NCBI GenBank assembly: GCA_964594635.1
Contig: CAZQMV010000008.1
Location: 59,813 to 123,812 of the forward strand
From: Uncultured Candidatus Berkiella sp.
GTDB taxonomy: Bacteria > Pseudomonadota > Gammaproteobacteria > Berkiellales > Berkiellaceae
Reading direction: 5' to 3'
DNA: 64,000 nt
Shown: positions 38,451 through 64,000 of the stretch, one piece after another
Numbering within the stretch: the first letter of the stretch is position 1
How the letters are laid out: each line of letters begins with the position of its first letter
Position numbers and translations under genes: made by a program
Notes under the pieces: generated by a model
Database searches by the model: none
What the model saw: the letters and a program-made list of their open reading frames with translations, nothing else
Told to the model about the DNA's origin: nothing

Positions 38451-38571
38451 ACACGCATAGCAGTCGATTTTTAGGTTAGGCGCAGAGTCTCGAGCAACAG
38501 GAGTGCACTCTTGTGCATGACTGTTGGGAGATGGCGAATGCAACAACACATAAAATTTGAATGCGAAGAGT
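38451..38571 (+). mobile_element. ERIC-like palindromic miniature element, copy 1 (degenerate left end)
   Basis: Core CAACAGGAGTGCACTCTTGTGCATGACTGTTG and flanks AGGTTAGGCG / CAACAACACATAAAA..GAAGAGT align with the copies at 53551, 63054 and 63910. Confidence 0.8.
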
Positions 38572-38574
38572 GAA

Positions 38575-39348
38575 ATGTGCGAATTATTAGGAATGAGCTC
38601 CAATAGCCCTGCAGATATTTGCTTTAGCTTTACCGGGCTAATGCAAAGAGGCGGCAAAACAGGACCTCATAAAGATGGTTGGGGTATCGCCTTCTATGAA
38701 GGACGAGGCTGCCGCACTTTCCATGATCCTTTTCCTAGCGCAGATTCAGAGATTGCGAAACTCGTGAAGCGCTATCCCATTAAAAGCCGTAATGTGATTT
38801 GCCATATCCGCAAAGCCAATAGTGGTAAAGTGTGTTTAGAAAATACACACCCTTTTGTCAGAGAATTGTGGGGACGTAATTGGAGTTTCGCGCATAACGG
38901 GCAGCTAAGAAGCATCAAAAAGAAATTGAAGCTTGTTCATTATTTTCCGGTTGGCACAACCGATAGTGAGCATGCTTTTTGTTGGATACTCGATCAGATT
39001 TATACTAAATTTCCCAAACCTCCTAAAAAAGATGAAAAAGTGGCAGCGTTAATTAAAGAACTCTGTGCAACGTTAACGCAGTTTGGCGTCGTTAACTTTT
39101 TAATGTGTGATTCTAAATATCTGTATGCTCATTGTTCTACCAAGTTAGTATGGATCACAAGACGAGCGCCCTTTGGTAAAGCCAAATTGGTGGATGATGA
39201 TTTGACCATTGATTTTTGCTCGCAAAATTCACCCAATGATATTATTACGGTATTGGCGACGGAGCCTTTAACGGATAATGAGAATTGGCAGAGATGTCAT
39301 AAGGGAGAGTTTATGGTTTTTAAAGAAGGCCTCCGACAGTCTGATTAA
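38575..39348 (+). CDS. Class II glutamine amidotransferase (YafJ/EgtC-like Ntn hydrolase)
   Basis: MCELLGMS (N-terminal Cys nucleophile), [36 protein letters not shown]. Confidence 0.92.
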
Positions 39349-39382
39349 AGAGATCTATTAAAATTTGAGAGAAAAAGTAGTG

Positions 39383-40909
39383 TTACATCGCCTCTTTAAA
39401 ATGCAGATTCATATAAATATCCATCCACTTTTCTAATTCTTTTTGTTCGTGCGGTTGTAAGAATAAGCCAAGTTTTGTTCTGCGCCACAAAATATCGTCT
39501 ACTTTACGGGCCCATTCCTTTTCGATGAGATAAACCACTTCTTTTTCGTAAAGCCCATGACCAAAGTGGAAACCTAGATCGCTGAGTTGTTTAGCATCTT
39601 TTAACACTTGATAGGTGAGCGTGCCATAATTTTGCGCGTAGCGTAATGCTAATGGCGTGGGCAACCAAGAAAAATCTTGACCCAAGGTTTCTAAAAAAGC
39701 AGTTAGCTCATGTACTCTAAAATCACCGCCAGGCAATGGACAAGTGCTGGTCCATTCGTGCCCCATATGGGTGAAAAAAGGGGCTAACAGATCAACTGTT
39801 TTTTCAGCAAGCAGGCGATAGGTAGTGAGTTTACCGCCCAGGACATTCAGAAGTGGCGCTTTACCTTGCTCGTTTACGTTCAGCTCAAGTTTATATTCAC
39901 GGCTATTCCCAGAAATGCTTGAGGTTTGATCGTCAACAAGGGGACGAACGCCAGACCAAGCATAAATGATTTGTTCTGGTTTCAGTGCATGGTGAAAATA
40001 ATCACTGACCACTTCACATAAATATTCGATTTCATCAAAGGTAATTTTGGCTTTTGAAGGGGAGCCTTGGTATACGATTTCGGTCGTGCCTATTAAGGTA
40101 AATTGTTTTAAATAGGGGATCACAAAGACAACCCTACCATCTTTATGTTGTAAAACATATGCTTCTTCGCGCTGATGTATTTTAGGGACAATGATATGGC
40201 TGCCTTTAATTAATTTGATGTTATATTGGCTTGGAATTTTCAAAACCTTATTTAAAATCTCACCCATAAAAGGGCCACCCGCATTGATGAGTGCTTTACA
40301 TTTGATCGTATAAGTTTGTTGATTTAACTGATTTTGCAGCTGCACTTGCCAATGGTCGTTCATGCGTGTTGCGCTAACGCAACGAGTATAGGAGGCAACA
40401 ACCCCACCAGCGCGTGCAAGACGTAAAGCATTGGTAATGACTAGCCTGGCATCATCGACGGTAGCGTCAGAGTAAATAAAACCTTTACGAATGGAGTGCT
40501 TTAAAGGGTTTGCAGGGTTGGGTTTTAAGAAAATCATTTTTGATCTTTTGAAAAAACGACCATAACCAAACAGATCATAAATAAACAATCCTATCCGAAT
40601 AAGACAAAAAGAACGTCGCAGCCGATTATAGGGCACAACGAAACGTAACGGACGTACAAGGTGAGGGGCGGTTTGAAGGAGTATTTCTCTTTCTTTAAGG
40701 GAATCTCGCACCAGGTTGAAGTGATAGCTTTCTAAGTATCGCAGTCCACCATGGATCAGCTTGCTACTGGCGCTGGAAGTTGCGCTTGCTAAATCATTTT
40801 GCTCACATAGAAATACGGACAGCCCACGGCCTGCAGCATCGGCCGCTATGCCTGTGCCATTGATACCCCCACCAATGACGACCACATCGACGAAGCTTTC
40901 CGTGTACAA
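39383..40909 (-). CDS. glpD: Aerobic glycerol-3-phosphate dehydrogenase
   Basis: VIGGGINGTGIA.DAAGRGL, SSASSKLIHGGLRYLE, DDARLV, KGSHIIVP, WSGVRPL, GGKLTTYR, WRRTKLG. Confidence 0.97.
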   Translation of the reverse strand: MYTESFVDVVVIGGGINGTGIAADAAGRGLSVFLCEQNDLASATSSASSKLIHGGLRYLESYHFNLVRDSLKEREILLQTAPHLVRPLRFVVPYNRLRRSFCLIRIGLFIYDLFGYGRFFKRSKMIFLKPNPANPLKHSIRKGFIYSDATVDDARLVITNALRLARAGGVVASYTRCVSATRMNDHWQVQLQNQLNQQTYTIKCKALINAGGPFMGEILNKVLKIPSQYNIKLIKGSHIIVPKIHQREEAYVLQHKDGRVVFVIPYLKQFTLIGTTEIVYQGSPSKAKITFDEIEYLCEVVSDYFHHALKPEQIIYAWSGVRPLVDDQTSSISGNSREYKLELNVNEQGKAPLLNVLGGKLTTYRLLAEKTVDLLAPFFTHMGHEWTSTCPLPGGDFRVHELTAFLETLGQDFSWLPTPLALRYAQNYGTLTYQVLKDAKQLSDLGFHFGHGLYEKEVVYLIEKEWARKVDDILWRRTKLGLFLQPHEQKELEKWMDIYMNLHFKEAM

Positions 40910-41011
40910 TGAAATACCTCATGATAAAAAGAGGATTGCTCTATTAAGAATAGATCAATTCCTTTATGATGGGATTAATTGTTTGATAACTAAGATACTT
41001 TAACAGGATAG

Positions 41012-42838: not shown

Positions 42839-42847
42839 TCAAAACTT

Positions 42848-46687: not shown

Positions 46688-46743
46688 ATTGTAGAAGATG
46701 CTACTTAGTAGTTTCTAACTTGGTTATCTAAAGGAATAGATCC

Positions 46744-49700
46744 ATGAAAACTGCCCTTCGCTGCTGGTTGCTGTTTATTTGCTGTTGTCTCACTGTATGG
46801 AACGTTACCGCAGCTCCTGATGACAAATCCATTCCTGAGATCTTAACTCCCTGGAAAGGCTGGGTTCTAAAAGGACATGAGATAGCGCTTTGTCCCATTC
46901 CTTATAATAACCAAGATCAACATTTTTGTGTTTGGCCAACCGATCTCAAATTGAATGTGGGACGAGAAAAAGGGTCTTTTACACTCAAAGTCGTGAATTA
47001 TATGGAAGCTTGGGTTGTTTTACCCGGTAGCAATGAGTATTGGCCGCAAGAGATCAAAGTTAACCAAAAAGTGTTTCCTGTGAGTACGCATCAAGGATCT
47101 CCCGCCGTTTTATTACCTTTGGGCGAATATACCATCGAAGGCGTTTTACATTGGGAGCGAGTACCTGATTTCATCCAGATCCCAGTCAATGTGGGAACAG
47201 TCAATTTAACGATAGAAGATAAAGTTATCGAACAACCCGATCGTGATAGAACAGGTAAGATTTGGTTAACGCGTCAAAATCAACCTCAGGTTGAACACAA
47301 AGAGCAAGATTCACTCAATGTACAAGTTTATCGACTCTTTAAAGACGATGTTCCATTAGAGCAAACCCTATTGTTACGTCTTAGAGTCTCGGGGCAATCG
47401 CGCGAAGTGACTTTAGGCCCCGTATTGTTAGCCGATTCTCTGCCACTTTCTATTATAAGTCGTTTACCATCGCGTTTAGAAGACAATGGTTTACTGCGCT
47501 TGCAAGTCAAACCAGGTGTTTGGGATGTGAGTATTAAAAGTCGCTTTGTGGGTAAACAAGATAAAATTGATTTCCAAAGTTTAGCCTCGCCTTGGCCCGC
47601 TAATGAGATTTGGTCTTTTGCGCAACAGAATGCTTTAAGGTTAGTGGATATTCAAGGCGCACAAAGCATCGATCCTCAGCAAACCGATATGCCAATGGCA
47701 TGGCGAGAATATCCGGCGTATTTGCTCGATAAAGGCAAGTCTTTGACCTTCAAAGAAATGCGTCGTGGACAAGAAGCACGGCGTGCAGAACAACTTAATT
47801 TACAACGTAGAATGTGGTTGGATTTTGAAGGGAAAGGCTATACGTTACAAGATACGATGACGGGTACGATTGAGCAGCATTGGCGTCTCAGCCAATTGCC
47901 GCCTTATCAGTTAGGTCGGGTCAGTATCGATGGTCATGATAGATTAATTACGCAAGTCGGTGATGGCGTTCCAGGCGTTGAAATTCGTCAGGGAATTCTA
48001 AATTTAACTGCAGTGAGCCGTATCAATGAAGTGCCCTCTAAGTTACCAGCAGTAGGTTGGGATGTTGATGTGAAATCGCTTTCTACGCAACTTCATTTAC
48101 CGCCGGGCTGGATGTTGCTTGGTGCGTGGGGAGTTGATACGGCGAATGAAGCTTGGATCCAACAGTGGACCTTGCTCGATCTTTTCTTGGTGCTCATTAT
48201 CGCAGCGGCAGTTTTGAAACTATTAGGATGGCGTTGGGGATTAGTCGCCTTATTGATGATCACAATGACTTATCAAGAACGTAGCGCTCCTGTGTATAGT
48301 TGGTTAAACCTCATTGCAGCGCTAGCCTTGATTGTCGTGCTACCGCCCACCAGCAAAGCCAAACGTTGGATCACATATTATTTCGGATTGAGTTTTATTG
48401 TTCTGTTGTTTTGGGCCTTACCGTTTATGGCGATGCAGATCCGCAATGCTATTTACCCTCAGCTGACGTTACCTAATGGATATCCGATGGCGATCCAAGA
48501 AGGAATTGTGATGAGTAAAATGGCGGGAGCACCTCAGGTTGCCATGGAAGCGTTGAATGCACCATTAGGCAGACAAAAAATGTTTGAAGATCGAGGCGTT
48601 GCAGGCAGCAGTGCAAATGTTCAAGATCAAATCGCTAAAGAAGAAAAACAATTAGATGATTATGATCCGAATGCAAAACGACAAACAGGTCCTTCAGTAC
48701 CAATTTGGTATTGGAACCAATATAACTTAACGTGGAATGGTCCGGTGCAGATGGATCAAACGCTTAAATTGTGGTTGTTAAGTGCCAGGGTGACCTCAGT
48801 GTTAAAAGTATTACAAGTGTTGTTAATGTTTGCTTTGATTTACGGATTGTTTAAAGCATCACGAGTAGAAGCGAGAAATATCACGCCACCTGAAAATAGG
48901 AAGGTTCCCCAAGTTGCAGCAATCGCCTTATTCTTTTTAGGCATGTTGTCATTTGGACTGTTGGCGCCAGATGCTATGGCTTCAGATATTCCTGATGAAG
49001 CTTTATTAACACAATTGCGTGAGCGGTTATTAGAACCTCCAACGTGTTTGCCAGAATGTGCCGAGATAAGCCGGATGCAAGTAGAAGCGAATGCCAATAA
49101 TCTCGTATTGCGCATTAAGGCAAATATCACCTCAAACGTGGCACTTCCCATTCCAAGTACGTTAGACAAATGGGTGCCTCGCACAGTTCTTGTGAATAAC
49201 GTGATCGCTAAAAATTTGCAATATGATGCCAATCAACAATTGTGGTTAAACTTACCAGCAGGCGTGCACGATGTCGTGATGGAAGGTTTAATTGGTGATC
49301 AAGATAAATTTGAAATTGGGATCCCTTTAAAACCAAAAGACATTTCACAATCAGCGAATGGTTGGACCATTGAAGGTATTAATCGCCACCAGTTGCAAGG
49401 TAATCACTTATATTTTAATCGCGTTAAACAGGCAGATGAACCAACAAAAACACCAAATGCGAATTTACAAGCCAGCAGAATTCCCCCTTTTGTGATTCTA
49501 ACGAAAACACTCAAGCTGGGTTTAGACTGGGAAGTGATTAATCAATTGCAACGCGTTGCGCCAACGCAAGGTGCAATCGATATTAGCATTCCATTGTTAG
49601 CGGGTGAGTCGGTCCTTTCTGACAAAGTGCAAATGAAAGATGGCAAAGCGTGGGTAACCCTTGGAACGCAAGAGAACCAAGTCGTTTGGCGATCTAAGCT

Positions 49701-50850
49701 CAGTCCCAGTAAAACGATCAAATTAGTGGCAGTGAACGATCCCAGTCTTAAACAAATATGGCAAGTCGATGCGATTTCGCAGTGGCATATTGCGTTTGAA
49801 GGCATTCCCATGATTCATCAAAGTAATCAAGCAAATCGCTATATGCCGCGCTTTGAACCCTGGAATGGCGAAACAGTGACTATCGAAGTCACAAGGCCAC
49901 TGCCAGTTGCAGGAAACACAGTGACCATTGACGATAGCCGTTTAGCCGTTGCGCCAGGTAAACGCATCAGTCAAGGCTCGCTTGGGTTTACAGCACGAGC
50001 CAGTGAAGGCGGAGCACATGTCTTTAAAATTCCAGCAAGCGCTGTTTTGCAGGATGTTTTGATTAATGGATTGAGCCAACCAATCAATATGAAACAAGGT
50101 GAGATCACGGTTCCGCTGAATCCAGGCAGCCAAAGAATTGAAGTGAAATGGCAAGAACCGCACCCGATCTCGATGTTTTACCGCACCCCAGCAATTGATT
50201 TAGAAATGCTAAGTAGCAACGGTGTGATCGATCTCAATATAAGTAAAGATCGCTGGATTTTATTATTAGGAGGATCCGTGGTGGGTCCTGCCGTTTTATT
50301 TTGGGGATTATTAGGCATTATCCTTGTAGCGGCAATTGCTTTGGGACGTTCAAGTTTAACTCCTTTGCGTAGTTGGCAATGGTTTTTATTGGCAATCGGA
50401 TTAACTTTGGCAACACCCATGGCAATCATCATTGTAATAGCCTGGTTTGTTGCAATGAACAAAAGAAGAGATGTTTCTGCAACAATGTCAATCAGTGCGT
50501 TTCAATGGATGCAAGTTGGACTTGTGTTGTTAACACTGATATTCATAGTTAGCTTATTTACAAGTATATCTGATGGACTTCTTGGATCACCCCGAATGCA
50601 GCTTGCAGGTCCTGTCATCAATATTGTGCAATCTCAATTTACCGATCCACAAATGTATCAATTACAGTGGTATCAAGACATGTCGAAGGGAGAGCTCGCA
50701 CAAGCGTGGGTCATTTCATTACCAATGTATATATATAGGATTTTAATGCTGCTATGGGCATTATGGCTTGCTTTCTCGTTAGTGAAATGGATACGTTGGG
50801 GTTGGGAGAGCTTTGCTACACAAGGCTATTGGAAAGAACGGCCTAGATGA
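46744..50850 (+). CDS. Large uncharacterised membrane protein (1368 aa, two homologous halves)
   Basis: Signal peptide, beta-rich soluble domain and TM cluster, followed by an internal signal-like segment, a second soluble domain and a second TM cluster. Confidence 0.85.
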   Translation: MKTALRCWLLFICCCLTVWNVTAAPDDKSIPEILTPWKGWVLKGHEIALCPIPYNNQDQHFCVWPTDLKLNVGREKGSFTLKVVNYMEAWVVLPGSNEYWPQEIKVNQKVFPVSTHQGSPAVLLPLGEYTIEGVLHWERVPDFIQIPVNVGTVNLTIEDKVIEQPDRDRTGKIWLTRQNQPQVEHKEQDSLNVQVYRLFKDDVPLEQTLLLRLRVSGQSREVTLGPVLLADSLPLSIISRLPSRLEDNGLLRLQVKPGVWDVSIKSRFVGKQDKIDFQSLASPWPANEIWSFAQQNALRLVDIQGAQSIDPQQTDMPMAWREYPAYLLDKGKSLTFKEMRRGQEARRAEQLNLQRRMWLDFEGKGYTLQDTMTGTIEQHWRLSQLPPYQLGRVSIDGHDRLITQVGDGVPGVEIRQGILNLTAVSRINEVPSKLPAVGWDVDVKSLSTQLHLPPGWMLLGAWGVDTANEAWIQQWTLLDLFLVLIIAAAVLKLLGWRWGLVALLMITMTYQERSAPVYSWLNLIAALALIVVLPPTSKAKRWITYYFGLSFIVLLFWALPFMAMQIRNAIYPQLTLPNGYPMAIQEGIVMSKMAGAPQVAMEALNAPLGRQKMFEDRGVAGSSANVQDQIAKEEKQLDDYDPNAKRQTGPSVPIWYWNQYNLTWNGPVQMDQTLKLWLLSARVTSVLKVLQVLLMFALIYGLFKASRVEARNITPPENRKVPQVAAIALFFLGMLSFGLLAPDAMASDIPDEALLTQLRERLLEPPTCLPECAEISRMQVEANANNLVLRIKANITSNVALPIPSTLDKWVPRTVLVNNVIAKNLQYDANQQLWLNLPAGVHDVVMEGLIGDQDKFEIGIPLKPKDISQSANGWTIEGINRHQLQGNHLYFNRVKQADEPTKTPNANLQASRIPPFVILTKTLKLGLDWEVINQLQRVAPTQGAIDISIPLLAGESVLSDKVQMKDGKAWVTLGTQENQVVWRSKLSPSKTIKLVAVNDPSLKQIWQVDAISQWHIAFEGIPMIHQSNQANRYMPRFEPWNGETVTIEVTRPLPVAGNTVTIDDSRLAVAPGKRISQGSLGFTARASEGGAHVFKIPASAVLQDVLINGLSQPINMKQGEITVPLNPGSQRIEVKWQEPHPISMFYRTPAIDLEMLSSNGVIDLNISKDRWILLLGGSVVGPAVLFWGLLGIILVAAIALGRSSLTPLRSWQWFLLAIGLTLATPMAIIIVIAWFVAMNKRRDVSATMSISAFQWMQVGLVLLTLIFIVSLFTSISDGLLGSPRMQLAGPVINIVQSQFTDPQMYQLQWYQDMSKGELAQAWVISLPMYIYRILMLLWALWLAFSLVKWIRWGWESFATQGYWKERPR

Positions 50851-52392: not shown

Positions 52393-52402
52393 CCAAACTA
52401 AT

Positions 52403-52433
52403 AAAAAAGCCCTGTTTTACAGGGCTTTTTTTT
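52403..52433 (+). terminator. Intrinsic terminator after the porin
   Basis: AAAAAAGCCCTGT-TTT-ACAGGGCTTTTTTTT. Confidence 0.9.
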
Positions 52434-52507
52434 GTGAAAAATAAAATCACGGTTGTACTTATTCGTTCTACAGCTAAACTGATAACAGAAAGATTCTACT
52501 TTATTGG

Positions 52508-53569
52508 ATGAGAAATATGCGTCGCTTATTGTCTTGTGCACTGCTTAGCGCCATGTTATGGGGATGTCAAAAGACAAATCCGCATCCAATGGATCCATTT
52601 GAAGGCGTTAACCGTGAAATTTACGCGTTAAACAAAACCCTCGACAAAGCTGTTGTTAGACCCGTTGCTTATGCCTATTGGAAATATTTGCCAACACCCT
52701 TTCAAATGGGGATTGGTAATTTTTATGACAATCTAAGAGAAATCTCGAACATCGCGAATGATATTTTGCAGGGCAAACTTGGTTATGCTTCACACGACGC
52801 GAGCCGTTTCTTTATTAATTCTACTCTCGGTTTAGGCGGTTTTTTTGATGTTGCAGGCAATTTAGGGCTGATGCACCGCAGGGAAGATTTTGGACAAACG
52901 TTATATATTTGGGGTTATGAGTGCTCCGCTTATATCGTATTGCCACTCCTTGGACCCAGTACTATCCGTGATACAGCAGGTTTGGTTGTTGATTATTATG
53001 CCTTCAGTGTCTGGCCATGGATTGGGGATGATGAATGGCGTTATGGTCTCTTAACATTAGATCTTATCGATCTCAGAGCAAGATTATTAAGACATGATAC
53101 CGTATTGAGTACGGTTGCTGTCGATGAATACGCTTTCATGCGTGATGCTTATTTCCAACGACGCCTCTATCTCATTAACAATGAATTTGACAATGATGCA
53201 GATGGCGATGGCACAGCAGATCTCGATCCTTATGATGCTTCCAATAGCAGCAGTGATGCGAAGCTTTCTATTGAAAGCGCTAAGACGAAAAATGATAGCA
53301 GCACAGAGGTCACGGTTGTTAAAGATTTGCCTGCGGTTAAGGAACCTGCTGTTAAAACAACAGAGCCTGTTAAAGACAGCGATTTACCCGATCCCAAAGC
53401 GGATGCAGGTAAGACCAATCTCAAACCCGCTACGGTTAAGACCAAAACGGATAAAGATGTTTATCCTCTAAAAGTTGAGGGTGCTAGCAAGCCCAAAGCG
53501 GAAGTCACGAGTAAGCCAAAAGCTGAAAGCTCTAATACTCAAAAAATTTCAATGCTCAAACCAGTTTGA
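52508..53569 (+). CDS. mlaA: MlaA/VacJ lipoprotein with a long acidic then K/P/T-rich C-terminal tail
   Basis: Lipobox LWGC, DPFEGVNR, NSTLGLGGFFDVA, EDFGQTL..WG, LPLLGPSTIRD, D.YAFMRDAY.QRR. Confidence 0.92.
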   Translation: MRNMRRLLSCALLSAMLWGCQKTNPHPMDPFEGVNREIYALNKTLDKAVVRPVAYAYWKYLPTPFQMGIGNFYDNLREISNIANDILQGKLGYASHDASRFFINSTLGLGGFFDVAGNLGLMHRREDFGQTLYIWGYECSAYIVLPLLGPSTIRDTAGLVVDYYAFSVWPWIGDDEWRYGLLTLDLIDLRARLLRHDTVLSTVAVDEYAFMRDAYFQRRLYLINNEFDNDADGDGTADLDPYDASNSSSDAKLSIESAKTKNDSSTEVTVVKDLPAVKEPAVKTTEPVKDSDLPDPKADAGKTNLKPATVKTKTDKDVYPLKVEGASKPKAEVTSKPKAESSNTQKISMLKPV

Positions 53570-53678
53570 TTTTAGGCTAGGCGACAAGTCCTCGAACAAC
53601 AGGAATGTACTAAAGTACATGACTGTTTGTGAGATGGACGAAGTCAACAACGCCTAAAACCAAAATGGGAAGAGCATT
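53551..53678 (+). mobile_element. ERIC-like palindromic miniature element, copy 2 (128 bp)
   Basis: Termini AATGCTC/GAGCATT, subterminal TTTGATTTTAGGC/GCCTAAAACCAAA, core CAACAGGAATGTACTAAAGTACATGACTGTT. Confidence 0.88.
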
Positions 53679-54961
53679 TAACAGAATTTAGCGGCGGCGG
53701 TCACCCAATATTTACGGGTATCAGCATAACCATATTCTTTACGGCCAGAAAAATCAGCGTATTCCACTCCCAAAAAGTAATTTTTAAAGATGGGGCGTTT
53801 AATACCAAAATCCCATTCATGTCCAAAAGTTGTGCCACCTGATTGCGCTTTAAAATGATGGTACGTTGCTTCTAGAACAACTTCCCAAGCGGTGATTTGT
53901 GCACTGGCATAGAGATCTTTTAAGCCATCGTCGGGCGTTCTCGTAAACTTTCCGGCATAACCATTAAATTCATGCAAACTGGCAAAAGGTGTTTTAAAGG
54001 CTTTACCAAAGGTTCGGTCATCGCCACTCAATACTTCAAGACCGCCACTGAGATCGAAGCAAAGCCAGGTCAACCCGCCGTTAAGGTGATAATAGTTTGC
54101 GCGGTAATCAACCGGGTTAGGATTTTTAGCATTTTGTCTGGCATATTCCATCACGCTATAAAGCGTGAAATCTGCAAAGGGATAATCACCTTCATATCGC
54201 AATCCATAAGTGTTGGCTGAGAAAGTGGGGAAATCAAAATCATGCACTAAGTAGCCGTAAGCAATTAAATCTCCAAAAGGAAATATTGTTGCTGACACAT
54301 TGATAAGATGTGTGGTGTTAGCGCGTTGTGGGAAATAAGCACTTTGATTACCTTGATAAATGGTGTTCACTTGATCGACAAAAGCATAAAACAATTCAAC
54401 ATTGGTCAGTGAGCGATTGACGAGGCTAACTGCATCATAGGTTTTTGGCATTTGTCTAAAATCAGAGGTGCCAACAAAACGTTCGTTATCAAGATTAATG
54501 TTTTGTCTTCCAACCAGAATTTGGGTTTCAGGAATACCGTCAAATGCGACCAAAGCTTGAACCAATGCCGTTCCTTTAGGATCGGGTATGATTGCGTAAT
54601 GGGTTTTTGAAGGACTGGTATTACTTCCGCTATTATGATGATTATTAAAATAAGACGTCACATTATTGAAATCCAATAACCCATAAACATGATAAAAAGG
54701 GGCCGTATTATACGTTAAGCGAGTCGAGAGCGTGCTAGCTCTCCCTGGAAAGTCGGGATCGCGGCTTAATTGTGGCCAACTTTTATCATTCACCTGTTCT
54801 TGGCGAAAGCGCAGCTTTAAACGGGTGTCCCCCTGGAAGAAGATGTCTTCTAGACAGTTTGCTTGTCCTTGGGGGGTAGGTGTATCGGTTGTATAAAAAC
54901 CTACACTCAGGGTAGGGTAGGCGAGAAAGAGTGCTAATAGGCTAGTTGTTCTTTTGTTCAT
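53678..54961 (-). CDS. Alginate-export (AlgE-like) family outer membrane beta-barrel
   Basis: LRFRQE, RLTYNTA, VGRQ.INLDNERFVG...RQ...YDA, F.TP.ASLH.FNGYA.KF, G.EWD; ends AKFC. Confidence 0.8.
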   Translation of the reverse strand: MNKRTTSLLALFLAYPTLSVGFYTTDTPTPQGQANCLEDIFFQGDTRLKLRFRQEQVNDKSWPQLSRDPDFPGRASTLSTRLTYNTAPFYHVYGLLDFNNVTSYFNNHHNSGSNTSPSKTHYAIIPDPKGTALVQALVAFDGIPETQILVGRQNINLDNERFVGTSDFRQMPKTYDAVSLVNRSLTNVELFYAFVDQVNTIYQGNQSAYFPQRANTTHLINVSATIFPFGDLIAYGYLVHDFDFPTFSANTYGLRYEGDYPFADFTLYSVMEYARQNAKNPNPVDYRANYYHLNGGLTWLCFDLSGGLEVLSGDDRTFGKAFKTPFASLHEFNGYAGKFTRTPDDGLKDLYASAQITAWEVVLEATYHHFKAQSGGTTFGHEWDFGIKRPIFKNYFLGVEYADFSGRKEYGYADTRKYWVTAAAKFC

Positions 54962-55000
54962 TATTTTCCCCGTTTCTACTACACGGTATAAGAATTAGTT

Positions 55001-55019
55001 GCCAATCATAATGATTGGC
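55001..55019. promoter_or_regulatory. Perfect 9-1-9 inverted repeat, operator candidate
   Basis: GCCAATCAT-A-ATGATTGGC in the divergent promoter region. Confidence 0.5.
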
Positions 55020-55145
55020 TTACCGGATATCCAGTATTTTACACCGTAAGCTCTATTGTTTTGCCGAACTATCCGATTAAGGGATAGGGGCTATTCTCTT
55101 TGGTCCAGACTATTTATAAACTATTGAGCTAACATTAGGCTGTAA

Positions 55146-56836: not shown

Positions 56837-56865
56837 TGACTAGTATGTTGGAGAAATAAGTAATT

Positions 56866-59184
56866 ATGGATCAACCCAGCGATTCATCCAAAAAGAAAAA
56901 GGATAAGTCTGATAAAAAGTCAGAGGGAACACCTATTGAAAATGCGATTGGTGAGGTTGGTTCTATTGGTATGGCAGGTAACCTAATTAAGGAAACCGCT
57001 GATGAGAGTCAAAAACCTGAAGAGCCTGAAGTTGAACAATGGCGAATACCGGCTGCTCATCATATCGCGCATGATCCTCTGCTTGCTTGCTTAGTGGTGC
57101 TAACACGTTTAGAGCATAATCCTTTTTCGCCAGAAACACTGATAGCAGGTCTGCCGCTTGTTGAAAATAAGTTAACACCGGAGCTCTTTATTCGAGCAGC
57201 TGCTAGAGCCGGATTGTCTGCGCAAATTGTGTCGCGAACTATCCCTGATATCTCACCTTTAGTATTACCTGCCGTTCTTTTATTGAAAAACCGTCAAGCG
57301 TGTATTTTAGTGGCAAAGAATGATGCTAAAGGTACCGCCACTATCATTCAACCTGAATCTAAACAAGGCGAAAAAGTTGTCTCTATTGCTGAATTATCAA
57401 AGCAATATACAGGTTATTCTATTTTTACGCGTCCAGCTTATCGTTTTGATAAGCGCAGTGATGAAGGTTTTAAAGAGCGTCCTAAGAATTGGTTTTGGAG
57501 TGTCATTGCCACGACGTGGAAAATTTACTCAGAAGTATTAGTGGCTTCTTTCTTTATTAACATCTTTGCGATTGGTTCTTCCTTGTTTGTGATGAACGTA
57601 TACGACAGAGTGGTACCCAATAACGCGATGGATACCTTAACGGTACTGGCGATTGGGGTACTCATCATCTTTACCTTCGATTTTATTATGAAAATGCTAC
57701 GGGGTTATTTCATCGATATTGCCGGTAAGAAGACCGATGTCATGTTATCTTCTAATATCTTTGAACAAATGATGGGCATTCGAATGGAGGCGCGCCCAGA
57801 ATCGGTAGGGAACTTTGCCAATAATATGCAACAGTTCGATTCGTTTAGAGATTTTTTTACTTCAACTACGATTAGTGCCTTAATCGATTTGCCATTTGTC
57901 TTATTTTTCATCGCAATTATCTTTACGTTAGGCGGTTACGTTGTCATTGTGCCCATTTTGGCGGTACCCTTAGTGATATTAGTGGGTTTTCTAATTCAAG
58001 CACCTCTGAACAAAGCAGTGAAGGAATCGTATCGCTACTCTGGTCAAAAACATGCGATGTTGATTGAATCGTTATCTGCTGTTGAAACGATTAAAAGTCT
58101 TTCAGCGGAAAGCCCATTGCAACGCAAATGGGAACATGCAGTGGGTATGGCAGCAAAGATCGGCACAAGAGTGCGTGGTTGGTCATCAACAGCAGTTAAC
58201 TTCTCGGTTTTTGTACAACAAGTTGCAGGTGTATTAGTTGTGATATTAGGTGTAAACCGTATTGCAGATGGTGATATGACCATGGGGGCGTTGATAGCTT
58301 GTACTATCTTGACGGGTAGAGCGCTGGCACCCTTATCGCAAATTGCAGGTTTAATGACGCGCTATCATCAATCAGTAGCGGCATTACAATCGCTTGATAA
58401 TGTGATGAAAATGCCAACTGACAGGTTAAGAGGACGCACACCATTACATCGTCCTCAGTTAACGGGTGATATTGAAATTAGAGACGTGACATTTAAATAT
58501 CCTCGCCAACAAGTCCCTGCGTTAAGCAATATCACGTTTAGTATTGCACCTGGTGAAAAAGTGGGGATCATTGGTCGCATTGGCTCAGGTAAGACCACCA
58601 TTGAAAAACTCATTTTGGGCTTATATCAAACGACTGAAGGCACGGTATTGATGGATGGCACAGAGATCAGTCAGTTAGATCCCGCTTCAATGCGTCGCAA
58701 TATTGGTTATGTGCCCCAAGATGTGATTTTGTTTTATGGTTCAGTGAAAGAAAACATTACTTACGGGGCACCCTTTGCAGATGATGTGTCGGTGTTAAGA
58801 GCAGCGAAAATTGCCGGTGTGACAGATTTTGTTGCCAAACATCCACAGGGCTTTGATATGCCCGTGGGTGAAAGAGGTGAGAAGCTTTCTGGCGGTCAAA
58901 GACAAGCTGTGGCGATTGCCAGAGCGTTGATTCTGGATCCCCCTATTTTGGTCTTAGATGAGCCGACCAATATGATGGATAATCGAACTGAAGAAATATT
59001 TAAAAATCAGTTGATTGAAGCATCAAAGGGTAAAACCTTACTTTTAGTGACGCATAAAGGTTCTTTGCTATCACTCGTCGATCGCTTGATCTTGATGGAT
59101 GGGGGTAAGGTCATTGCAGATGGCCCAAGAGATTTGGTTTTAAAAGCACTAGCAGAGGGGAAGTTGCACTCAAATGCGCGATAA
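56866..59184 (+). CDS. Type I secretion ABC transporter with a C39-like domain (LapB-like)
   Basis: DPLL..L, LPAVLLL, NWFW, MNVYDRVVPN, GRIGSGKTT, LSGGQRQ, LDEPT.MMD. Confidence 0.93.
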   Translation: MDQPSDSSKKKKDKSDKKSEGTPIENAIGEVGSIGMAGNLIKETADESQKPEEPEVEQWRIPAAHHIAHDPLLACLVVLTRLEHNPFSPETLIAGLPLVENKLTPELFIRAAARAGLSAQIVSRTIPDISPLVLPAVLLLKNRQACILVAKNDAKGTATIIQPESKQGEKVVSIAELSKQYTGYSIFTRPAYRFDKRSDEGFKERPKNWFWSVIATTWKIYSEVLVASFFINIFAIGSSLFVMNVYDRVVPNNAMDTLTVLAIGVLIIFTFDFIMKMLRGYFIDIAGKKTDVMLSSNIFEQMMGIRMEARPESVGNFANNMQQFDSFRDFFTSTTISALIDLPFVLFFIAIIFTLGGYVVIVPILAVPLVILVGFLIQAPLNKAVKESYRYSGQKHAMLIESLSAVETIKSLSAESPLQRKWEHAVGMAAKIGTRVRGWSSTAVNFSVFVQQVAGVLVVILGVNRIADGDMTMGALIACTILTGRALAPLSQIAGLMTRYHQSVAALQSLDNVMKMPTDRLRGRTPLHRPQLTGDIEIRDVTFKYPRQQVPALSNITFSIAPGEKVGIIGRIGSGKTTIEKLILGLYQTTEGTVLMDGTEISQLDPASMRRNIGYVPQDVILFYGSVKENITYGAPFADDVSVLRAAKIAGVTDFVAKHPQGFDMPVGERGEKLSGGQRQAVAIARALILDPPILVLDEPTNMMDNRTEEIFKNQLIEASKGKTLLLVTHKGSLLSLVDRLILMDGGKVIADGPRDLVLKALAEGKLHSNAR

Positions 59185-60562
59185 ATTCTTACAATTACGA
59201 GACGCGGTCAATGAATTGGCAGAGACCAAGAAAAAGGCAGAAATCCAAGAGGTTGATATTGAGTTCATGACCGACTCCAGCGCCGCGATGCTCCAAGGCG
59301 TGCCATTTCGCTATCACATGATTTTGATTGCGGCAGCAGGGTTTTTATTTGTGGCGGGTATTTGGGCAAGTTTTGCAACCTTAGACGTTGTTACCGTCGC
59401 GCAGGGGAAAGTGATCCCTTCACGTAGTATGCAAGTGGTGCAAAATTTAGAAGGTGGTATTGTCAAAGATATTCGTGTGAAGGTGGGCGAAGTTGTCGAA
59501 CGTGGACAAGTCGTGATGATTATCGATGACACACGCTTTGTGTCTTCCATGAAAGAAGGTGAAGTGCAAAGCGATGCCTTGCAAGCTAAAATTGAGCGTT
59601 TAACCTCAGAGACTTCTGGAGCGACTTTGAAATTCTCGAAAGAGTTGACCGAGAGTTCACCCGAGACGGTTAAAAATGAAACTAGCTTATATGAAAACCG
59701 CAAGCATGAATTGGAAGTCAAATTAAATATTTTAAAAGATGATGTAGAGCAGCGTAAGCAAGAGTTATCGGCGGCGTTAGGTAAAAAAGATCAAGTTGAA
59801 CGTAGCTTAACCTTAGTCAAAAAAGAATTATCACTTACTAAACCTTTAGTGGCACAGGGTGCAGTTTCTGAAGTAGATGTTCTACGCTTAGAAAGAACGG
59901 TGAACGACTTACAGGGCGATTTAGAGCAAACACAGCTCTCTATCCCTAAGTTAGAAGCAAGTTTAACCGGAGCGCAACGCAAAATTGAGGAATTGCTTTT
60001 AGGATTTAAATCCGATGCCTTTAAAGAGTTGAATACCGCTAAAGCTGAATATTCTCGATTATTTGAAAGCAATAAAGCAGCGGCCGATAGAGTGACACGA
60101 ACCATTGTGCGATCGCCCGTGCGAGGGACCGTTAACCAAGTTAAAGTAGCCACCATCGGCGGGATTGTTCAGCCAGGTCAAGATTTAATGGACATCGTTC
60201 CTTTGGATGACACGTTGTTGATCGAGGCAAATGTAAGACCTTCTGATATCGGGTTTTTAAGACCGGGCTTACCCGCGACGGTTAAAATTTCTGCTTATGA
60301 CTTTTCTATTTATGGTGGTTTAAAAGCCGTGGTTGAACATATCAGTGCTGATACCATCACGGATGAAAAAGGGAATGCATTTTACCAAATTCGCGTTCGC
60401 ACGACAGAAGCAAGCTACTTAGTAGGCAAGCATGGCGAACGCTTGCAAATTATTCCGGGGATGAGTGCAACGGTAGACATCTTAACGGGTGAAAAGACCG
60501 TATTAGAATATTTACTCAAACCAATCATTAAAGCAAAACGTAACGCGATGAGAGAGCGCTAA
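59174..60562 (+). CDS. HlyD family type I secretion membrane fusion protein (LapC-like)
   Basis: One TM, GKVIPS...QVVQNLEGG, RSPVRG.V, GGIVQPG, YDFSIYGGL, IIPGM...DILTG.KTVL.YLLKP. Confidence 0.95.
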   Translation: MRDKFLQLRDAVNELAETKKKAEIQEVDIEFMTDSSAAMLQGVPFRYHMILIAAAGFLFVAGIWASFATLDVVTVAQGKVIPSRSMQVVQNLEGGIVKDIRVKVGEVVERGQVVMIIDDTRFVSSMKEGEVQSDALQAKIERLTSETSGATLKFSKELTESSPETVKNETSLYENRKHELEVKLNILKDDVEQRKQELSAALGKKDQVERSLTLVKKELSLTKPLVAQGAVSEVDVLRLERTVNDLQGDLEQTQLSIPKLEASLTGAQRKIEELLLGFKSDAFKELNTAKAEYSRLFESNKAAADRVTRTIVRSPVRGTVNQVKVATIGGIVQPGQDLMDIVPLDDTLLIEANVRPSDIGFLRPGLPATVKISAYDFSIYGGLKAVVEHISADTITDEKGNAFYQIRVRTTEASYLVGKHGERLQIIPGMSATVDILTGEKTVLEYLLKPIIKAKRNAMRER

Positions 60563-60566
60563 ACCG

Positions 60567-61283
60567 ATGATATTGATTGCTTCGTCAGATACGGAAATGG
60601 GAGCACGCTGGCATGCGCTATTGTCTCCCATCTATCCTATGTATGAAGTCGATGTCCATGACAGGCGCGCATTGGAGTTGTGTTTAAAAAAGGTGATCTT
60701 TGATGTTTTGATCGTTGATTTGCAATTACTCGGTGAATCGGGCGTAAATGAGATTGCAAGCCTGCGTGAAATCCAACCCCAGCTTAATATTGTTATCATG
60801 GCAAGAGCCCCTGATGAGCGTGAAGAAATCTCAGCGATTATTTTTGGTGCCAAAGCCTATTGCAGTTTTAATATTGAGTTGACTATCCTGCCGAAAGTGA
60901 TCAAAACCGTCATGGAAAATGAGCTATGGGTTGATCGTAAGTTTGTCACTCGATTACTTTCTGAGATTGAAGATATTACGCATGCCAAACATCAAGAAGC
61001 AAAGCATTTGGATAAAGGTATTGCAACGATGACGCCAAGGGAATGTGAAATTGCAGCATTGGTTGCAACCGGATCCAGTAATAGGAAAATAGCCGAACAA
61101 CTCAGTATTTCCGAAAGAACCGTTAAAGCACATCTAGGTGTGATATTTCGCAAAATTGGTATTAGTGATCGTCTTCAGTTGGCTCTATATATGAATCGTC
61201 ACCAACAACTTTCTTCTATATGGCATGGCAATAAAGCTCCTCGACTTGGCCCTCATACGGTTGATCCGAACCGCAAACATTGA
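60567..61283 (+). CDS. LuxR/NarL family response regulator
   Basis: Receiver with IVDL (Asp retained); HTH MTPRE.EIA.LVA.G.SN.KIA.QL.ISERTVKAHL..IFRK. Confidence 0.92.
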   Translation: MILIASSDTEMGARWHALLSPIYPMYEVDVHDRRALELCLKKVIFDVLIVDLQLLGESGVNEIASLREIQPQLNIVIMARAPDEREEISAIIFGAKAYCSFNIELTILPKVIKTVMENELWVDRKFVTRLLSEIEDITHAKHQEAKHLDKGIATMTPRECEIAALVATGSSNRKIAEQLSISERTVKAHLGVIFRKIGISDRLQLALYMNRHQQLSSIWHGNKAPRLGPHTVDPNRKH

Positions 61284-61600
61284 TTTCATTTCACTTTTTT
61301 CAAAAATTGACTTGTACCCATCGTCATGTTTATGTAACTTCTAAGAAGCTTAGAACGAATGAATATTTTTTTAGTTAGCAAGCAGCGAACACTGTCTAGA
61401 TAATTAATAATATTTAAATTAAGATAGGCTGAATAAATTCCCTTTCATCAGATGGCAGGGTATATTACAGAGGGTGGACAAGGTAGCAACCCTGTTCTGC
61501 AGATAAGTAGCTAACCAGCTGTATCAAGGTTAACTCGTGCAGAGCAACGAAGCTTGTGTCCTATGGGCGTTTAAGGATAGACGGAAGAGCGAACACAGTC

Positions 61601-63043
61601 ATGTCAAAAAACAGATTTCTAAAAATACTCTTACCTTCAATCGCGTTAACATTTGGTACACAAGCCTATGCGTATACCGTACATGATGCGGTAGCTCATT
61701 CGCTTGCAACCTCTCCTGATTTTTTAATCAGCACGAACGTTCGTGACGAAGTAGATAAACAATTGCGCGAATCATATGCAGGTTATTTGCCCTCTGTCGA
61801 TTTGACAGCAGGCTTAGGTCAACAATACACAAATAACTCTACTACGCGTGCAGTGGCTGGTTTTAATGGTGTCATCACTACTGGGCCTATACCAACTTCA
61901 TTAGTTCCTCCAGTTGCGTCCCTTGGTACAACAACAATGACACGAACAGAATTTGCGTTAACAGCAACGCAAATGTTATTCGATGGCTTTGCCGTCTATA
62001 ACGATGTTGAAGGCCACAAAGCGCGTGTGAGAGCTGAGTCATGGCGTGTGAACGGTAATGCTCAAGATACTGCGTTGAGAGTCGTTGAAGCTTACTTAAA
62101 TGTTCTGCAAAACAGAGATTTAGTAGTGAATACGAAAGAAAATCTTGCCACTATCGAACGCATTTATGGTCAAATTCAAAAACGTAGTGAAGGTGGTATT
62201 GGTCGTAAAGCAGATTTAGACCAAGCAGAAGCGCGTGTTGCTTTAGCTCGTGTAAATCATTTAGCACAACAAGGGTTGCTAAGAGATGCTGAAACAGCAT
62301 TTTTACGTCAAATCGGCATCCCAACACCTTCTCATTTAGTTTTACCGGAAACCCCACAAGGCTTTCCAAACTCTGAAAACGCTGCAGTTGAACATGGCTT
62401 AAAATGTCATCCTATCTTGCGCGCTTCAGTAGAAGACGTACAAGTCACTCGTAATGAATACAAAGGCACAAGAGCACCTTTTGTTCCTAGAGTTGACCTG
62501 CAACTTGGACATACCCGTAACCACAACGTTGATGGTAATCATGGCGACAGCGATGATAATACGGCAATGTTACGTGCACGTTGGAACCTGTTTAAAGGCG
62601 GCCAAGATTTAGCACGAGTCTGTGAAAAAGCGTCCAAAATGCAAGAAGCTCAAGAAGTGTCAAATCGTGCACAACGACAAGTGGTTGAAACCGTTCGCTT
62701 AGCTTGGAACTTATACCAAACAGCGGTTAATCAGTTACCACCACTTAAAGATCACGTTGATTCTTCTGTCAAAACTCGTGACGCTTATCAAAAGCAATTT
62801 AATATCGGCCAACGTACGTTGCTCGATTTATTAGATTCTGAAAATGAGTTGTTCGGCGCAAGACAAGATTACATCCAAGGTAAATACAAACGTATTTTGG
62901 GTCAATATCGTGTTATGAACGCAACGGGTGATCTCACTCGCTCAGTGGGTGTGTCATTACCTCGCCAAGCAGAACCCAGAGCTACTGGTGTGATGGATGG
63001 TGCAATGCGCTTCTTTGACAAAACCAGCACATTGTTTGACTAA
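61601..63043 (+). CDS. TolC family type I secretion outer membrane protein (LapE/AggA-like)
   Basis: Signal peptide from ATG 61601, GYLPSVDL, MLFDGF, KADLDQA.AR, QFNIGQRTLLDLLDSENELF. Confidence 0.93.
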   Translation: MSKNRFLKILLPSIALTFGTQAYAYTVHDAVAHSLATSPDFLISTNVRDEVDKQLRESYAGYLPSVDLTAGLGQQYTNNSTTRAVAGFNGVITTGPIPTSLVPPVASLGTTTMTRTEFALTATQMLFDGFAVYNDVEGHKARVRAESWRVNGNAQDTALRVVEAYLNVLQNRDLVVNTKENLATIERIYGQIQKRSEGGIGRKADLDQAEARVALARVNHLAQQGLLRDAETAFLRQIGIPTPSHLVLPETPQGFPNSENAAVEHGLKCHPILRASVEDVQVTRNEYKGTRAPFVPRVDLQLGHTRNHNVDGNHGDSDDNTAMLRARWNLFKGGQDLARVCEKASKMQEAQEVSNRAQRQVVETVRLAWNLYQTAVNQLPPLKDHVDSSVKTRDAYQKQFNIGQRTLLDLLDSENELFGARQDYIQGKYKRILGQYRVMNATGDLTRSVGVSLPRQAEPRATGVMDGAMRFFDKTSTLFD

Positions 63044-63053
63044 TAAAGGAATA

Positions 63054-63178
63054 TTACTCGAAACAATTTGATTTCAGGCGAGGCGACGAAGCCTCGAACA
63101 ACAGGAGTGTGCTTTAGTACATGACTGTTGAGAGATGGATGAAGTCAACAAAGCATGAAGTCAAAGTGTAAAGAGTAA
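63054..63178 (+). mobile_element. ERIC-like palindromic miniature element, copy 3 (125 bp)
   Basis: Termini TTACTC/GAGTAA, subterminal ACAATTTGATTTCA/TGAAGTCAAAGTGT, core CAACAGGAGTGTGCTTTAGTACATGACTGTTG. Confidence 0.88.
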
Positions 63179-63191
63179 AATAGGTATTAAG

Positions 63192-63215
63192 AGAGGGGCA
63201 ATGGCCCCTCTTTTT
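63192..63215 (+). terminator. Intrinsic terminator
   Basis: AGAGGGGC-AATG-GCCCCTCT-TTTT. Confidence 0.8.
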
Positions 63216-63249
63216 GTTTCCAAATGGATTCTTGGGACTTACCTGATAC

Positions 63250-63909
63250 ATGCGAAGTCGATATTTTTTGATTTTAATACTGGCATCTTTCATATGCCTT
63301 GTTAGCGCACTTGAATTTAGCCAAGATTATCTTGATCAAATTGGTAAGCAATATGGCGAATATGCAAAGCGCCGTATTATCACATGGCAGAATTTACTCA
63401 AAAATAATAAAAATGAAAGCGACCTTAAAAAACTCGAGGTTGTTAATCAATTTTTCAATTTATTAGACTATCGTTCTGATATTCATCAGTGGGGAAGGGA
63501 AGATTATTGGGCAACCCCGTTAGAATTTTTGGTGACCGGTGGTGGAGATTGTGAAGACTTTACGGTTGCTAAATACTTCACTTTAATTGAACTTGGCGTG
63601 CCTGACGATAAACTACTGATTACCTATGTTAAGCATTTACAACTTAATGTAGCCCACATGGTACTTTCCTATTATCCAACACCTGATAGCACGCCATTAA
63701 TTTTGGATAATTATAACAAAGAAATTTTACCCGCCGATAAAAGAACAGATTTGCAACCAATCTATGGTTTTAACGGTAAAGGACTATGGGCAGCAAAGCA
63801 GTTAGGCTTAGGGAATAAAATTGGTGAAGCGACGGATTTAAAGAGATGGTCGGATCTTGAAGCGCGAATGAAGGAAGGGAAAATCGGCAAGTTCATCAAT
63901 GCCGACTAA
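63250..63909 (+). CDS. lapG: Transglutaminase-like periplasmic cysteine protease (BTLCP, LapG-like)
   Basis: Signal peptide, VNQFFN, DYWATPLEF, GDCEDF (Cys), AHMVL (His), LILDN (Asp), L.PIYGFN. Confidence 0.9.
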   Translation: MRSRYFLILILASFICLVSALEFSQDYLDQIGKQYGEYAKRRIITWQNLLKNNKNESDLKKLEVVNQFFNLLDYRSDIHQWGREDYWATPLEFLVTGGGDCEDFTVAKYFTLIELGVPDDKLLITYVKHLQLNVAHMVLSYYPTPDSTPLILDNYNKEILPADKRTDLQPIYGFNGKGLWAAKQLGLGNKIGEATDLKRWSDLEARMKEGKIGKFINAD

Positions 63910-64000
63910 TTGCTCTGCCTTCTTTCGCCTTAGGCGTTGTTGACTACGGCTTTGAAAAACAGTCGTGTATTAAGTATACACTCCTATTTTCCAAAACCTT
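63910..64000 (-). mobile_element. ERIC-like element, copy 4 (inverted, cut by the window end)
   Basis: Reverse complement reads AGGAGTGTATACTTAATACACGACTGTT...GTCAACAACGCCTAA...GAGCAA; GTCAACAACGCCTAA is identical to copy 2. Confidence 0.82.

Follow-up and report, generated by a model that had tools for sequence, protein, structure and literature searches.

What are the four palindromic repeats that lie in a 64-kb stretch of metagenomic DNA from an uncultured Candidatus Berkiella species, and how did they come to be there? The stretch, 64,000 nucleotides of contig CAZQMV010000008.1 and hereafter the window, carries copies (c1 to c4) of an element that was initially annotated as resembling ERIC (for enterobacterial repetitive intergenic consensus). 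Also named IRU, RU-1 and, in ISfinder, MITEEc1, ERIC is a 127-bp repeat of Escherichia coli, Salmonella, Klebsiella, and Yersinia with a Photorhabdus form, MITEPlu5; it has been known since 1990-91, and ERIC-PCR typing is used worldwide. How ERIC moves and what it does are, to our knowledge, unsettled. Judged by their sequence, the window repeats are diverged members of the ERIC family. [quoted passage not shown]

Copies of the element in the window

The copies were located with an nhmmer profile made from the copies themselves and run across the whole window. This profile matches exactly four places, with E-values from 2e-36 to 9e-21, and finds no copy in positions 1-38000. The four repeats of the initial annotation are thereby recovered at their places, three of them full length (125-128 nt) and the fourth, c4, cut by the window end; the visible part of c4 scores 32.5 bits with covariance model R1 (described below). 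The central motif that had been described is present as well, as AGGARTG-N10-CAYGACTGTT matches c1 to c3 exactly, against 0.41 matches expected by chance in the pattern scan. In the apical core at this position, a CAG/CUG helix is followed by a 2x2 GA/GA internal loop, a 6-bp helix, and a 4-nt loop. Within the family this core is conserved most strongly, and ERIC shares it. The window copies are ~80% identical to one another with decayed ends, and the terminal dinucleotides of the three full copies are AA/TT, AA/AA, and AT/AA. All four copies lie within the last 26 kb of the window; related assemblies hold just 6-9 exact-core copies each, making this a locally dense stretch.

All four copies are intergenic and sit tight against gene ends. 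Copy c1 is inserted in the short spacer that separates an FtsX/MacB-type permease gene from a YafJ-like class-II amidotransferase gene, and the amidotransferase ATG lies one base past its end (c1 right end, GAAGAGTGAA; translated N-terminus, MCELLGMS); in a numbering in which c1 spans 38450-38574, the permease stop is at 38444 and the ATG at 38575. Two convergent genes flank c2, which overlaps both of their stop codons: that of MlaA (53567-53569) lies inside the left arm, and that of a minus-strand 427-aa open reading frame (ORF; stop at 53678-53680) shares one base with the right end when c2 is placed, in the same numbering, at 53551-53678 (c3 at 63053-63179). The third copy, c3, lies in the 3' UTR of a gene for a TolC-like outer-membrane protein, after the stop codon (63043) and before a terminator hairpin, which was revealed by folding and not listed by a simple terminator scan. 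This hairpin is conserved in two relatives that do not have c3 (L081 and L082; loci outside the window are labelled L). It would place c3 within the transcript of the TolC-like gene, and the position between stop codon and terminator implies that c3 is transcribed. The fourth copy begins where a BTLCP/LapG-like protease gene has its stop codon; c3 and c4 bracket this gene.

Homology to authentic ERIC

Seven authentic ERICs, one chromosomal copy from E. coli and six from plasmids of Rahnella, Klebsiella, Citrobacter, and E. coli, served for comparison. A 44-nt core rebuilt from the ERIC1R and ERIC2 primers is present in 5424 of 5426 complete E. coli genomes, and a real E. coli ERIC copy contains AGGCGACAAGT; the ERIC strings given in the initial annotation thus match real E. 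coli DNA.

Homology was found in both search directions. With a single E. coli ERIC as the nhmmer query against the whole window, the top two matches are c3 and c2, collinear from the first bases. The profile of all seven ERICs returns c3 as its best match (E 4.7e-4) and c2 as the second (E 2.7e-3), the next match having E~8, and it aligns ERIC positions 4-100 on the first ~97 nt of the element. In the reverse direction, covariance models were built from the new family, R1 from 35 new-family copies only and R2, a control, without two ERIC-core-like copies. R1 finds all seven ERICs in the same orientation over model positions 1-133 of 133 with 39-93 bits, and the E-values of the new-family models against ERICs reach down to 1e-18 to 6e-21. 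The reverse strands of the ERICs score 10-15 bits with R1. R2 still gives the seven ERICs 37-92.5 bits, compared with 14-18 bits for exact-core loci without a palindrome.

The consensus sequences of the new family and ERIC are 68% identical over 129 aligned positions. A comparison with shuffled palindromes, made by permuting pairs and loops within the ERIC consensus such that hairpin and composition were retained, had been named beforehand as the refuting test for homology. The alignment z-scores against these shuffles are 7.0 for c1, 10.6 for c2, 13.2 for c3, and 18.6 for the family consensus, and the proposed relationship to ERIC is upheld.

Three parts are common to ERIC and the new family: the ends TA-TACYC...GRGTA-TA, a mid-stem loop with AGGCG.CAAG opposite CAAC, and the apical module. 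In E. coli ERIC, the latter reads CAG-GA-GCUUAC...GUAAGU-GA-CUG. The new family retains the module CAGGAG...TGACTG..TGAG and its GA/GA loop, whereas the flanking helix is CAACAG in place of the CCCCAG of ERIC and the apical helix is GTGTAY in place of GCTTAC. Since the bases of the flanking helix differ, the 22-nt ERIC-PCR primer sites are not conserved in the new family.

The host

The window comes from a metagenome and has a GC content of 41%. Positions 9748-15822 (~6 kb) are syntenic, at 72-80% DNA identity in blastn, with a metagenome-assembled genome (MAG) of an uncultured Candidatus Berkiella sp. (L053). Among named proteins, the amidotransferase is closest to homologues in Gammaproteobacteria bacterium 39-13 (77%) and Candidatus Berkiellales bacterium (76%), and MlaA to homologues in Ca. 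Berkiella sp. (70%) and Ca. Berkiella aquae (64%). The host is Berkiellales-like and neither enterobacterial nor vibrio, as had been supposed from the outset. Berkiella was formerly placed in Legionellales; in the NCBI taxonomy it has its own order, Berkiellales, which stands next to Legionellales.

Fold, covariation, and strand asymmetry

The full copies c1 to c3 each fold as one long imperfect hairpin (-43 to -52 kcal/mol; z -4.6 to -8.2 versus shuffles), and no shuffle folds as well. Covariation was analyzed in an alignment of the 35 new-family copies against 500 shuffles and against controls in which pairing partners were slid by 1-3 columns. The consensus hairpin has 42 pairs, of which 33 show compensatory changes, and 95.4% of cells are paired, so the early remark that base changes often preserve pairing holds for the family. 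None of the 500 shuffles reaches any covariation measure, and the slid controls pair 29-42%. The ends covary too, as TACTC/GAGTA, TAGTC/GACTA, TACCC/GGGTA, and TGCTC/GAGCA. Extra inserts of 18-20 nt occur at the same arm position in four copies (L062:105-242, L021:6061-6203, L024:4786-4929, and L059:2502-2644), and some of them are small hairpins themselves, e.g., CCCCTCAAGGGGG and GCCCTTAAGGGT.

The two strands are not equivalent. G.U pairs number 90 versus 21 A.C pairs, or 57 versus 21 without one invariant G.U. The ERIC-consensus-sense strand is ~11 kcal/mol more stable as RNA than its complement in 33 of 35 new-family copies and in all seven ERICs, and the 2x2 GA/GA loop is never changed to Watson-Crick pairs in any subfamily. 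Transcription-orientation bias was considered as the cause of the G.U excess and rejected, since relative to co-directional flanking genes 10 copies have the same and 8 the opposite orientation. This even distribution indicates that the strand bias is inherent in the element, in single-stranded form, and does not stem from host mRNAs. Because one strand folds ~11 kcal/mol better as RNA and the GA/GA loop is fixed, we infer that selection acts on a single-stranded form (RNA or ssDNA) rather than on duplex DNA.

Gain, loss, and decay at orthologous sites

The flanking proteins led to close relatives in other metagenomes (L081, L082, and L088-L096). At the c1 site, gene order is the same over 12 kb in L088-L090 (amidotransferase 93% identical) and L091-L093 (85%); the spacer is 6 or 18 nt in these six relatives, and no element occurs anywhere in their contigs. 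Both c3 and c4 are absent at the orthologous sites in L081 (87% DNA identity) and L082 (82%). L081 retains an 18-nt piece of the right end of c3, pointing to a 110-nt deletion there. At the c2 site, L096 (MlaA 82% identical) keeps both element ends around 45 unrelated bases that replace the center, and L094 and L095 (MlaA 78%) have no element and a 54-nt spacer with a terminator-like hairpin. The reverse case, a site empty in the window and filled in a relative, is listed in Table 1. In addition, c2 is 94% identical to a copy with unrelated flanks at a non-orthologous site in L067, a Ca. Berkiella MAG of another species. The elements have thus been inserted, deleted, and eroded on a time scale of ~10% genome divergence, and the copies of this genome belong to several old subfamilies.

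Two further comparisons gave no junctions. When sequencing runs X1-X3 were placed on the window, contigs broke at the repeats and no clean empty-site joint was found, the joints being cross-mappings between copies. An all-against-all blastn of the 73 loci described below for presence/absence pairs returned only distant synteny, too diverged for junctions.

Distribution of the family

When 185,579 species-representative genomes were scanned for the core pattern, 73 loci were obtained, which were sorted with profile and model searches. About 45 full-length copies of the same element are held by MAGs labelled Ca. Berkiella and by unnamed gammaproteobacterial MAGs. Relatives alignable over their full length occur in Thiotrichales, Thiomicrospira cyclica, and Methyloglobulus MAGs, with 33-63 bits in R1. 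The Thiomicrospira and Thiotrichales copies have other ends, TTAAGCC...GGCTTAA, and recognizable arms (CTAGGCGG and CCAACAACGC); arm-only profiles with the core removed give no significant match by sequence to the Thiomicrospira and Methyloglobulus elements. Two copies of one MAG (L028:147-282 and L035:4403-4538) combine arms of the new type with an ERIC-type helix, CCCCAG...CTGGGG, and by this combination bridge the new-family and ERIC forms. Approximately 12 of the 73 loci are chance matches without a palindrome and were used as negative controls.

The 45 copies are dispersed, intergenic, near gene ends, and in both orientations. Besides those with the co-directional neighbors counted above, 6 lie between convergent and 5 between divergent genes, and 14 have incomplete flanks. 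Two were flagged inside crude, probably spurious ORF calls, and none is clearly intragenic. A plasmid collection searched with c2 in distant mode gave no match. Viral contigs scanned with the core pattern gave 0 matches and hence no sign of a phage vector.

ERIC has been described as confined to Enterobacteriaceae and Vibrionaceae (PMC3184786; PMC2229807), and the same limit is given, with reference to Zo 2011, in PMC10969869. No literature on ERIC-like elements in Berkiella or Legionella was found. True ERIC relatives in a Berkiella-like host far from enterobacteria mean that the range of the family exceeds both its name and the literature. The early suggestion of a family wider than thought is therefore borne out, with members also in MAGs of amoeba-associated, Berkiellales-like bacteria and of Thiomicrospira, Thiotrichales, and Methyloglobulus. 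What is new is the host range and a subfamily of an already known ERIC element. Either the age of the family or its horizontal mobility is much greater than assumed, and the new subfamily offers a comparative handle on what ERIC needs for function or movement.

Movement and alternative explanations

The ends of the new family read TA-TACTC...GAGTA-TA, and TA flanks the 5' end in 25, the 3' end in 22, and both ends in 20 of the 35 copies, against a background of 7%. ERIC itself has a 7-bp terminal inverted repeat with TA at the termini (PMC2229807). For MITEPlu5, an ERIC-related element of Photorhabdus, TA is reported as the duplicated target, the ends are similar to those of IS630-type transposons, and two strains differ by 47 insertions or deletions (PMC6267812). 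The initial statement that the mobilizer of ERIC is unknown is slightly out of date in this respect, the similarity of MITEPlu5 to IS630-type ends having already been reported (PMC6267812).

It is proposed that a transposase whose gene lies elsewhere acts on the copies in trans and moves them. The most likely candidate would be an IS630/Tc1-mariner-type DDE enzyme acting at TA sites, because of the TA-TACYC...GRGTA-TA ends and the published link between MITEPlu5 and IS630-type ends. Copies beside genes may also be transcribed as part of the mRNA and form a ~60-bp hairpin, which could alter mRNA processing, stability, termination, or ribosome access. Of the window copies, c1 abuts a start codon, c3 has a stop codon on one side and a terminator on the other, and a stop codon is overlapped by c2 and by c4.

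Several observations weigh against this explanation. Empty sites for c1, c3, and c4 were found, as the initial annotation had advised seeking, and their spacers are too diverged for the junction, and with it a TA duplication, to be read. Three of the 35 copies have AA...TT in place of TA...TA, which keeps complementarity and not direct repetition; such variants suggest that the terminal dinucleotide may belong to the inverted repeat. The center and not the ends is most conserved, which is unusual for a MITE recognized by a transposase. The identity of only ~80% among the window copies, with their decayed ends, speaks for no recent burst in this genome. The strand asymmetry, given the even orientation of copies, cannot reflect function in every host mRNA. 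Related sequence was present in one RNA run only, metatranscriptome X5, which yields a single contig inside the TolC-like gene and none over the elements.

A mobilizer was also sought among the neighboring genes. Pfam searches of 28 large window ORFs detected no transposase, and among 98 ORFs of 36 related 8-kb loci (~290 kb) no transposase family was detected in at least two ORFs, single-member families not all being listed and the sample being too small to exclude a transposase elsewhere in the genome. No insertion sequence (IS) with matching ends was found in the window or in the 36 related loci, and the nhmmer matches include no isolated element ends ~1 kb apart, the mark of a parent IS. 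These negatives likewise count against the proposal, and the early suggestion that this genome may encode its mobilizer has so far found no support in the window or in the ~290 kb of related loci.

Rather than being moved by a DDE (IS630-type) transposase that binds the terminal inverted repeats, the same ERIC-family element could spread via a single-stranded hairpin intermediate (ssDNA or RNA) whose apical module is recognized by an enzyme or host factor, e.g., a HUH/Y1-type transposase. Such a route is unlikely, though several observations favor it. The part most conserved and common to ERIC is the apical hairpin with its never-compensated GA/GA loop; the ends differ between subfamilies (TATACYC versus the TTAAGCC of Thiomicrospira and Thiotrichales copies) and include the AA...TT variants; the ~11 kcal/mol asymmetry and the G.U excess hold whatever the gene orientation, which fits constraint on a propagating strand; and the same core is central in palindromic repeats of other phyla (see below). 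On the other hand, 7-bp inverted-repeat ends flanked by TA are as in IS630-derived MITEs, TA duplication and IS630-type end similarity are reported for MITEPlu5 (PMC6267812), and no HUH or other candidate gene lies near any copy.

Much less credible is the idea that the elements are host-encoded, non-mobile structured RNA modules kept as cis-regulatory or stability elements. The very strong covariation with conserved unpaired motifs, the strand bias, which fits RNA folding, and the positions at stop codons, at a start codon, and before a terminator, which fit regulation, would agree with it, and the 94% cross-species identity could be purifying selection. However, the neighboring genes are unrelated and in both orientations, c1 is cleanly present or absent within an otherwise syntenic operon, remnants and gutted copies mark orthologous sites, near-identical copies occupy non-orthologous sites in different species, and the 47 differences between two strains reported for MITEPlu5 are insertions or deletions (PMC6267812).

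Convergence of unrelated palindromic repeats, or contamination of the window with enterobacterial or vibrio DNA, has next to no probability and is already contradicted by the tests run: any long A/T-rich hairpin earns some structure-model score (10-22 bits on reverse strands), but the 37-93 bits are reached end to end in the same orientation, z is 7-19 against structure-preserving shuffles, the ERIC profile matches nothing else in the window, and the 41% GC, the Berkiella synteny, and the Berkiella nearest protein homologues argue against contamination.

The apical module in other phyla

A 28-nt core, ACAGGAGTGTAC-loop-GTACATGACTGT with the GA/GA loop, is shared by ERIC, the new family, and near-perfect palindromes of 100-135 nt in other phyla (-50 to -81 kcal/mol), in which it lies at the exact center. 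These palindromes are multi-copy, mostly intergenic, and often located between convergent genes, and they have the same folding strand bias. Bases adjacent to the core are similar (GCA before, G.GAG after), and R1 scores the palindromes at 39-50 bits versus 14-18 bits for the core alone. A chance match of ~11 independent core bases at the center of an unrelated palindrome is very unlikely.

On a tentative reading, held at well under an even chance, ERIC would belong as a branch to a superfamily of ~100-135-nt hairpin repeats that crosses phyla and has a fixed apical module recognized by copying or processing machinery. The module may comprise the CAG/CUG helix, the tandem G.A internal loop, a 6-bp GUGUAC-type helix, and a short loop. 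Against this idea, arm-only profiles with the core removed give no significant match to the Firmicutes and Bacteroidota elements, the loci were selected by the core pattern itself, and convergence on a stable RNA motif is possible. It is on account of the arms, which do not align, and of the pattern-based selection that common origin is given the lesser weight.

Among Firmicutes-type copies (L047, L009/L071, L003, and L057), the outermost ~10 bp vary between copies and are complementary within each. This variable outer stem, which is odd for fixed terminal repeats, could come from insertion into hairpins that were already present or from rapid compensatory change. Copies L009 and L071, which are orthologous, are ~95% identical, against 71-85% for their flanking genes.

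Comparison across ERIC and its relatives separates fixed parts (the apical GA/GA hairpin, the AGGCG.CAAG/CAAC loop, the TA-TACYC ends, and the strand bias) from most helix sequences, which have drifted. The fixed parts are concrete targets in the search for a mobilizer or a binding protein, and the set of element-carrying genomes can now be intersected for a co-occurring transposase.

Coordinates and other genes of the window

Table 1. Copies of the element, associated features, and loci outside the window (CM, covariance model)
Feature	Location	Strand	Remarks
c1	38451-38575	+	Full length; nhmmer E 2e-35; CM R1 122 bits; fold -42.9 kcal/mol
c2	53552-53679	+	Full length; nhmmer E 2.5e-36; CM R1 137 bits
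c3	63054-63179	+	Full length; nhmmer E 2.3e-35; CM R1 124 bits
c4	63908-64000	-	Inverted; truncated by window end; ~93 of 127 nt visible; nhmmer E 9e-21, profile positions 36-126
Apical core	c2 53599-53627; c1 38497-38525; c3 63101-63129	+	Pattern matches; invariant alignment columns
Intrinsic-terminator-like hairpin with U-tract	63189-63220	+	Just downstream of c3; fold -18.5 kcal/mol, z -4.0
Site empty in window, filled in relative	13138-13162	.	Full element at L053:4430-4552 (blastn synteny, alignment, nhmmer)
Thiomicrospira cyclica, Thiotrichales, and Methyloglobulus relatives	L019:830-960; L052:5738-5867, 6813-6943; L060:268-397; L026:5557-5677; L007:144-270		
Chance-match loci	L005, L015, L018, L023, L032, L045, L046, L049, L051, L058, L063, L073		
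Core loci in other phyla			Gut Firmicutes MAGs, 16; Bacteroidaceae MAG, 3; Flavobacteriales MAG, 1
Gut Firmicutes core loci, labels	L003, L004, L008, L009, L010, L012, L013, L027, L039, L047, L057, L065, L070, L071, L074		
Bacteroidota core loci	L014, L022, L042; L072		Bacteroidaceae MAG (first three); Flavobacteriales MAG (L072)

An 854-aa ORF at 37-2601 (+) has a C-terminal colicin-E3-type Cytotoxic ribonuclease domain (Pfam PF09000, E 4e-25) and, from its predicted domain, looks like a polymorphic toxin. A sulfatase gene with an FGE-type maturase gene lies at 3281-6158, a 977-aa fusion with TPR, sulfotransferase, and methyltransferase domains at 15080-18013, and a pair of adjacent autotransporter genes at 20152-25118. 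The cluster at 56866-63909 encodes a C39-peptidase ABC exporter, an HlyD-type adaptor, a LuxR-type response regulator, the TolC-like protein, and the BTLCP/LapG-like protease, and by this gene content looks like a type I secretion or LapG-type system. An exact-protein look-up of the BTLCP protease returned no record. The 1368-aa ORF at 46744-50850 (+) and the 427-aa ORF at 53678-54961 (-) have no Pfam match; the 427-aa gene beside mlaA is conserved in L094 and L095.

Comparison with known systems

In Coxiella burnetii, of the Legionellales, QMITE1 and QMITE2 are also MITE-like, found at 3' gene ends, and hosted by an intracellular gammaproteobacterium (PMC5896051). QMITE1 is 300-400 bp long, and QMITE2 is 150-190 bp long with a GTAG repetitive extragenic palindrome and 7-11-nt direct repeats and is targeted by IS1111 (PMC5896051). 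By these published descriptions, the QMITEs bear no resemblance to the window element and were rejected as its identity.

No Rfam family reaches its gathering score in the whole window, and for c2 the only match at E<=5 is to a meaningless long non-coding RNA. The 129-nt model V_AS5 (Vibrio RNA AS5, RF02818) gives full-length, sub-threshold matches on enterobacterial ERICs (22-46 bits, gathering score 96) and appears to describe an ERIC-like Vibrio copy; it has no match to the window element (window 53400-53800) even at E<=5. The small-RNA families that overlap ERIC copies below threshold (L001 and L075-L080) are V_AS5, sraL, Ysr49, isrH, and CssrA, which seem to include or to have been built on ERIC copies.

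MITEs derived from IS630/Tc1-mariner elements, such as RUP of Streptococcus pneumoniae and MITEPlu5 with ISPlu3/8/19, are likewise small, carry terminal inverted repeats, and have TA on either end (PMC2229807, PMC6267812). In contrast to them, the new family is conserved at the center and not at the ends, and no IS630-type gene or matching IS end was found here.

ERIC differs from the new family in host, which for the latter is Berkiellales-like and not of the Enterobacterales or Vibrionaceae, and in the flanking helix (CCCCAG/CTGGGG in ERIC, CAACAG/CTGTTG in the new family) and apical helix (GCTTAC and GTGTAY, respectively). The two agree in a length of 125-130 bp, in a single long imperfect hairpin, and in a consensus 68% identical end to end, as well as in the apical module, the mid-stem AGGCG.CAAG/CAAC loop, and the TA-TACYC...GRGTA-TA ends. 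Both are intergenic and dispersed in both orientations, both fold better as RNA from the same strand, and both turn over between close relatives.

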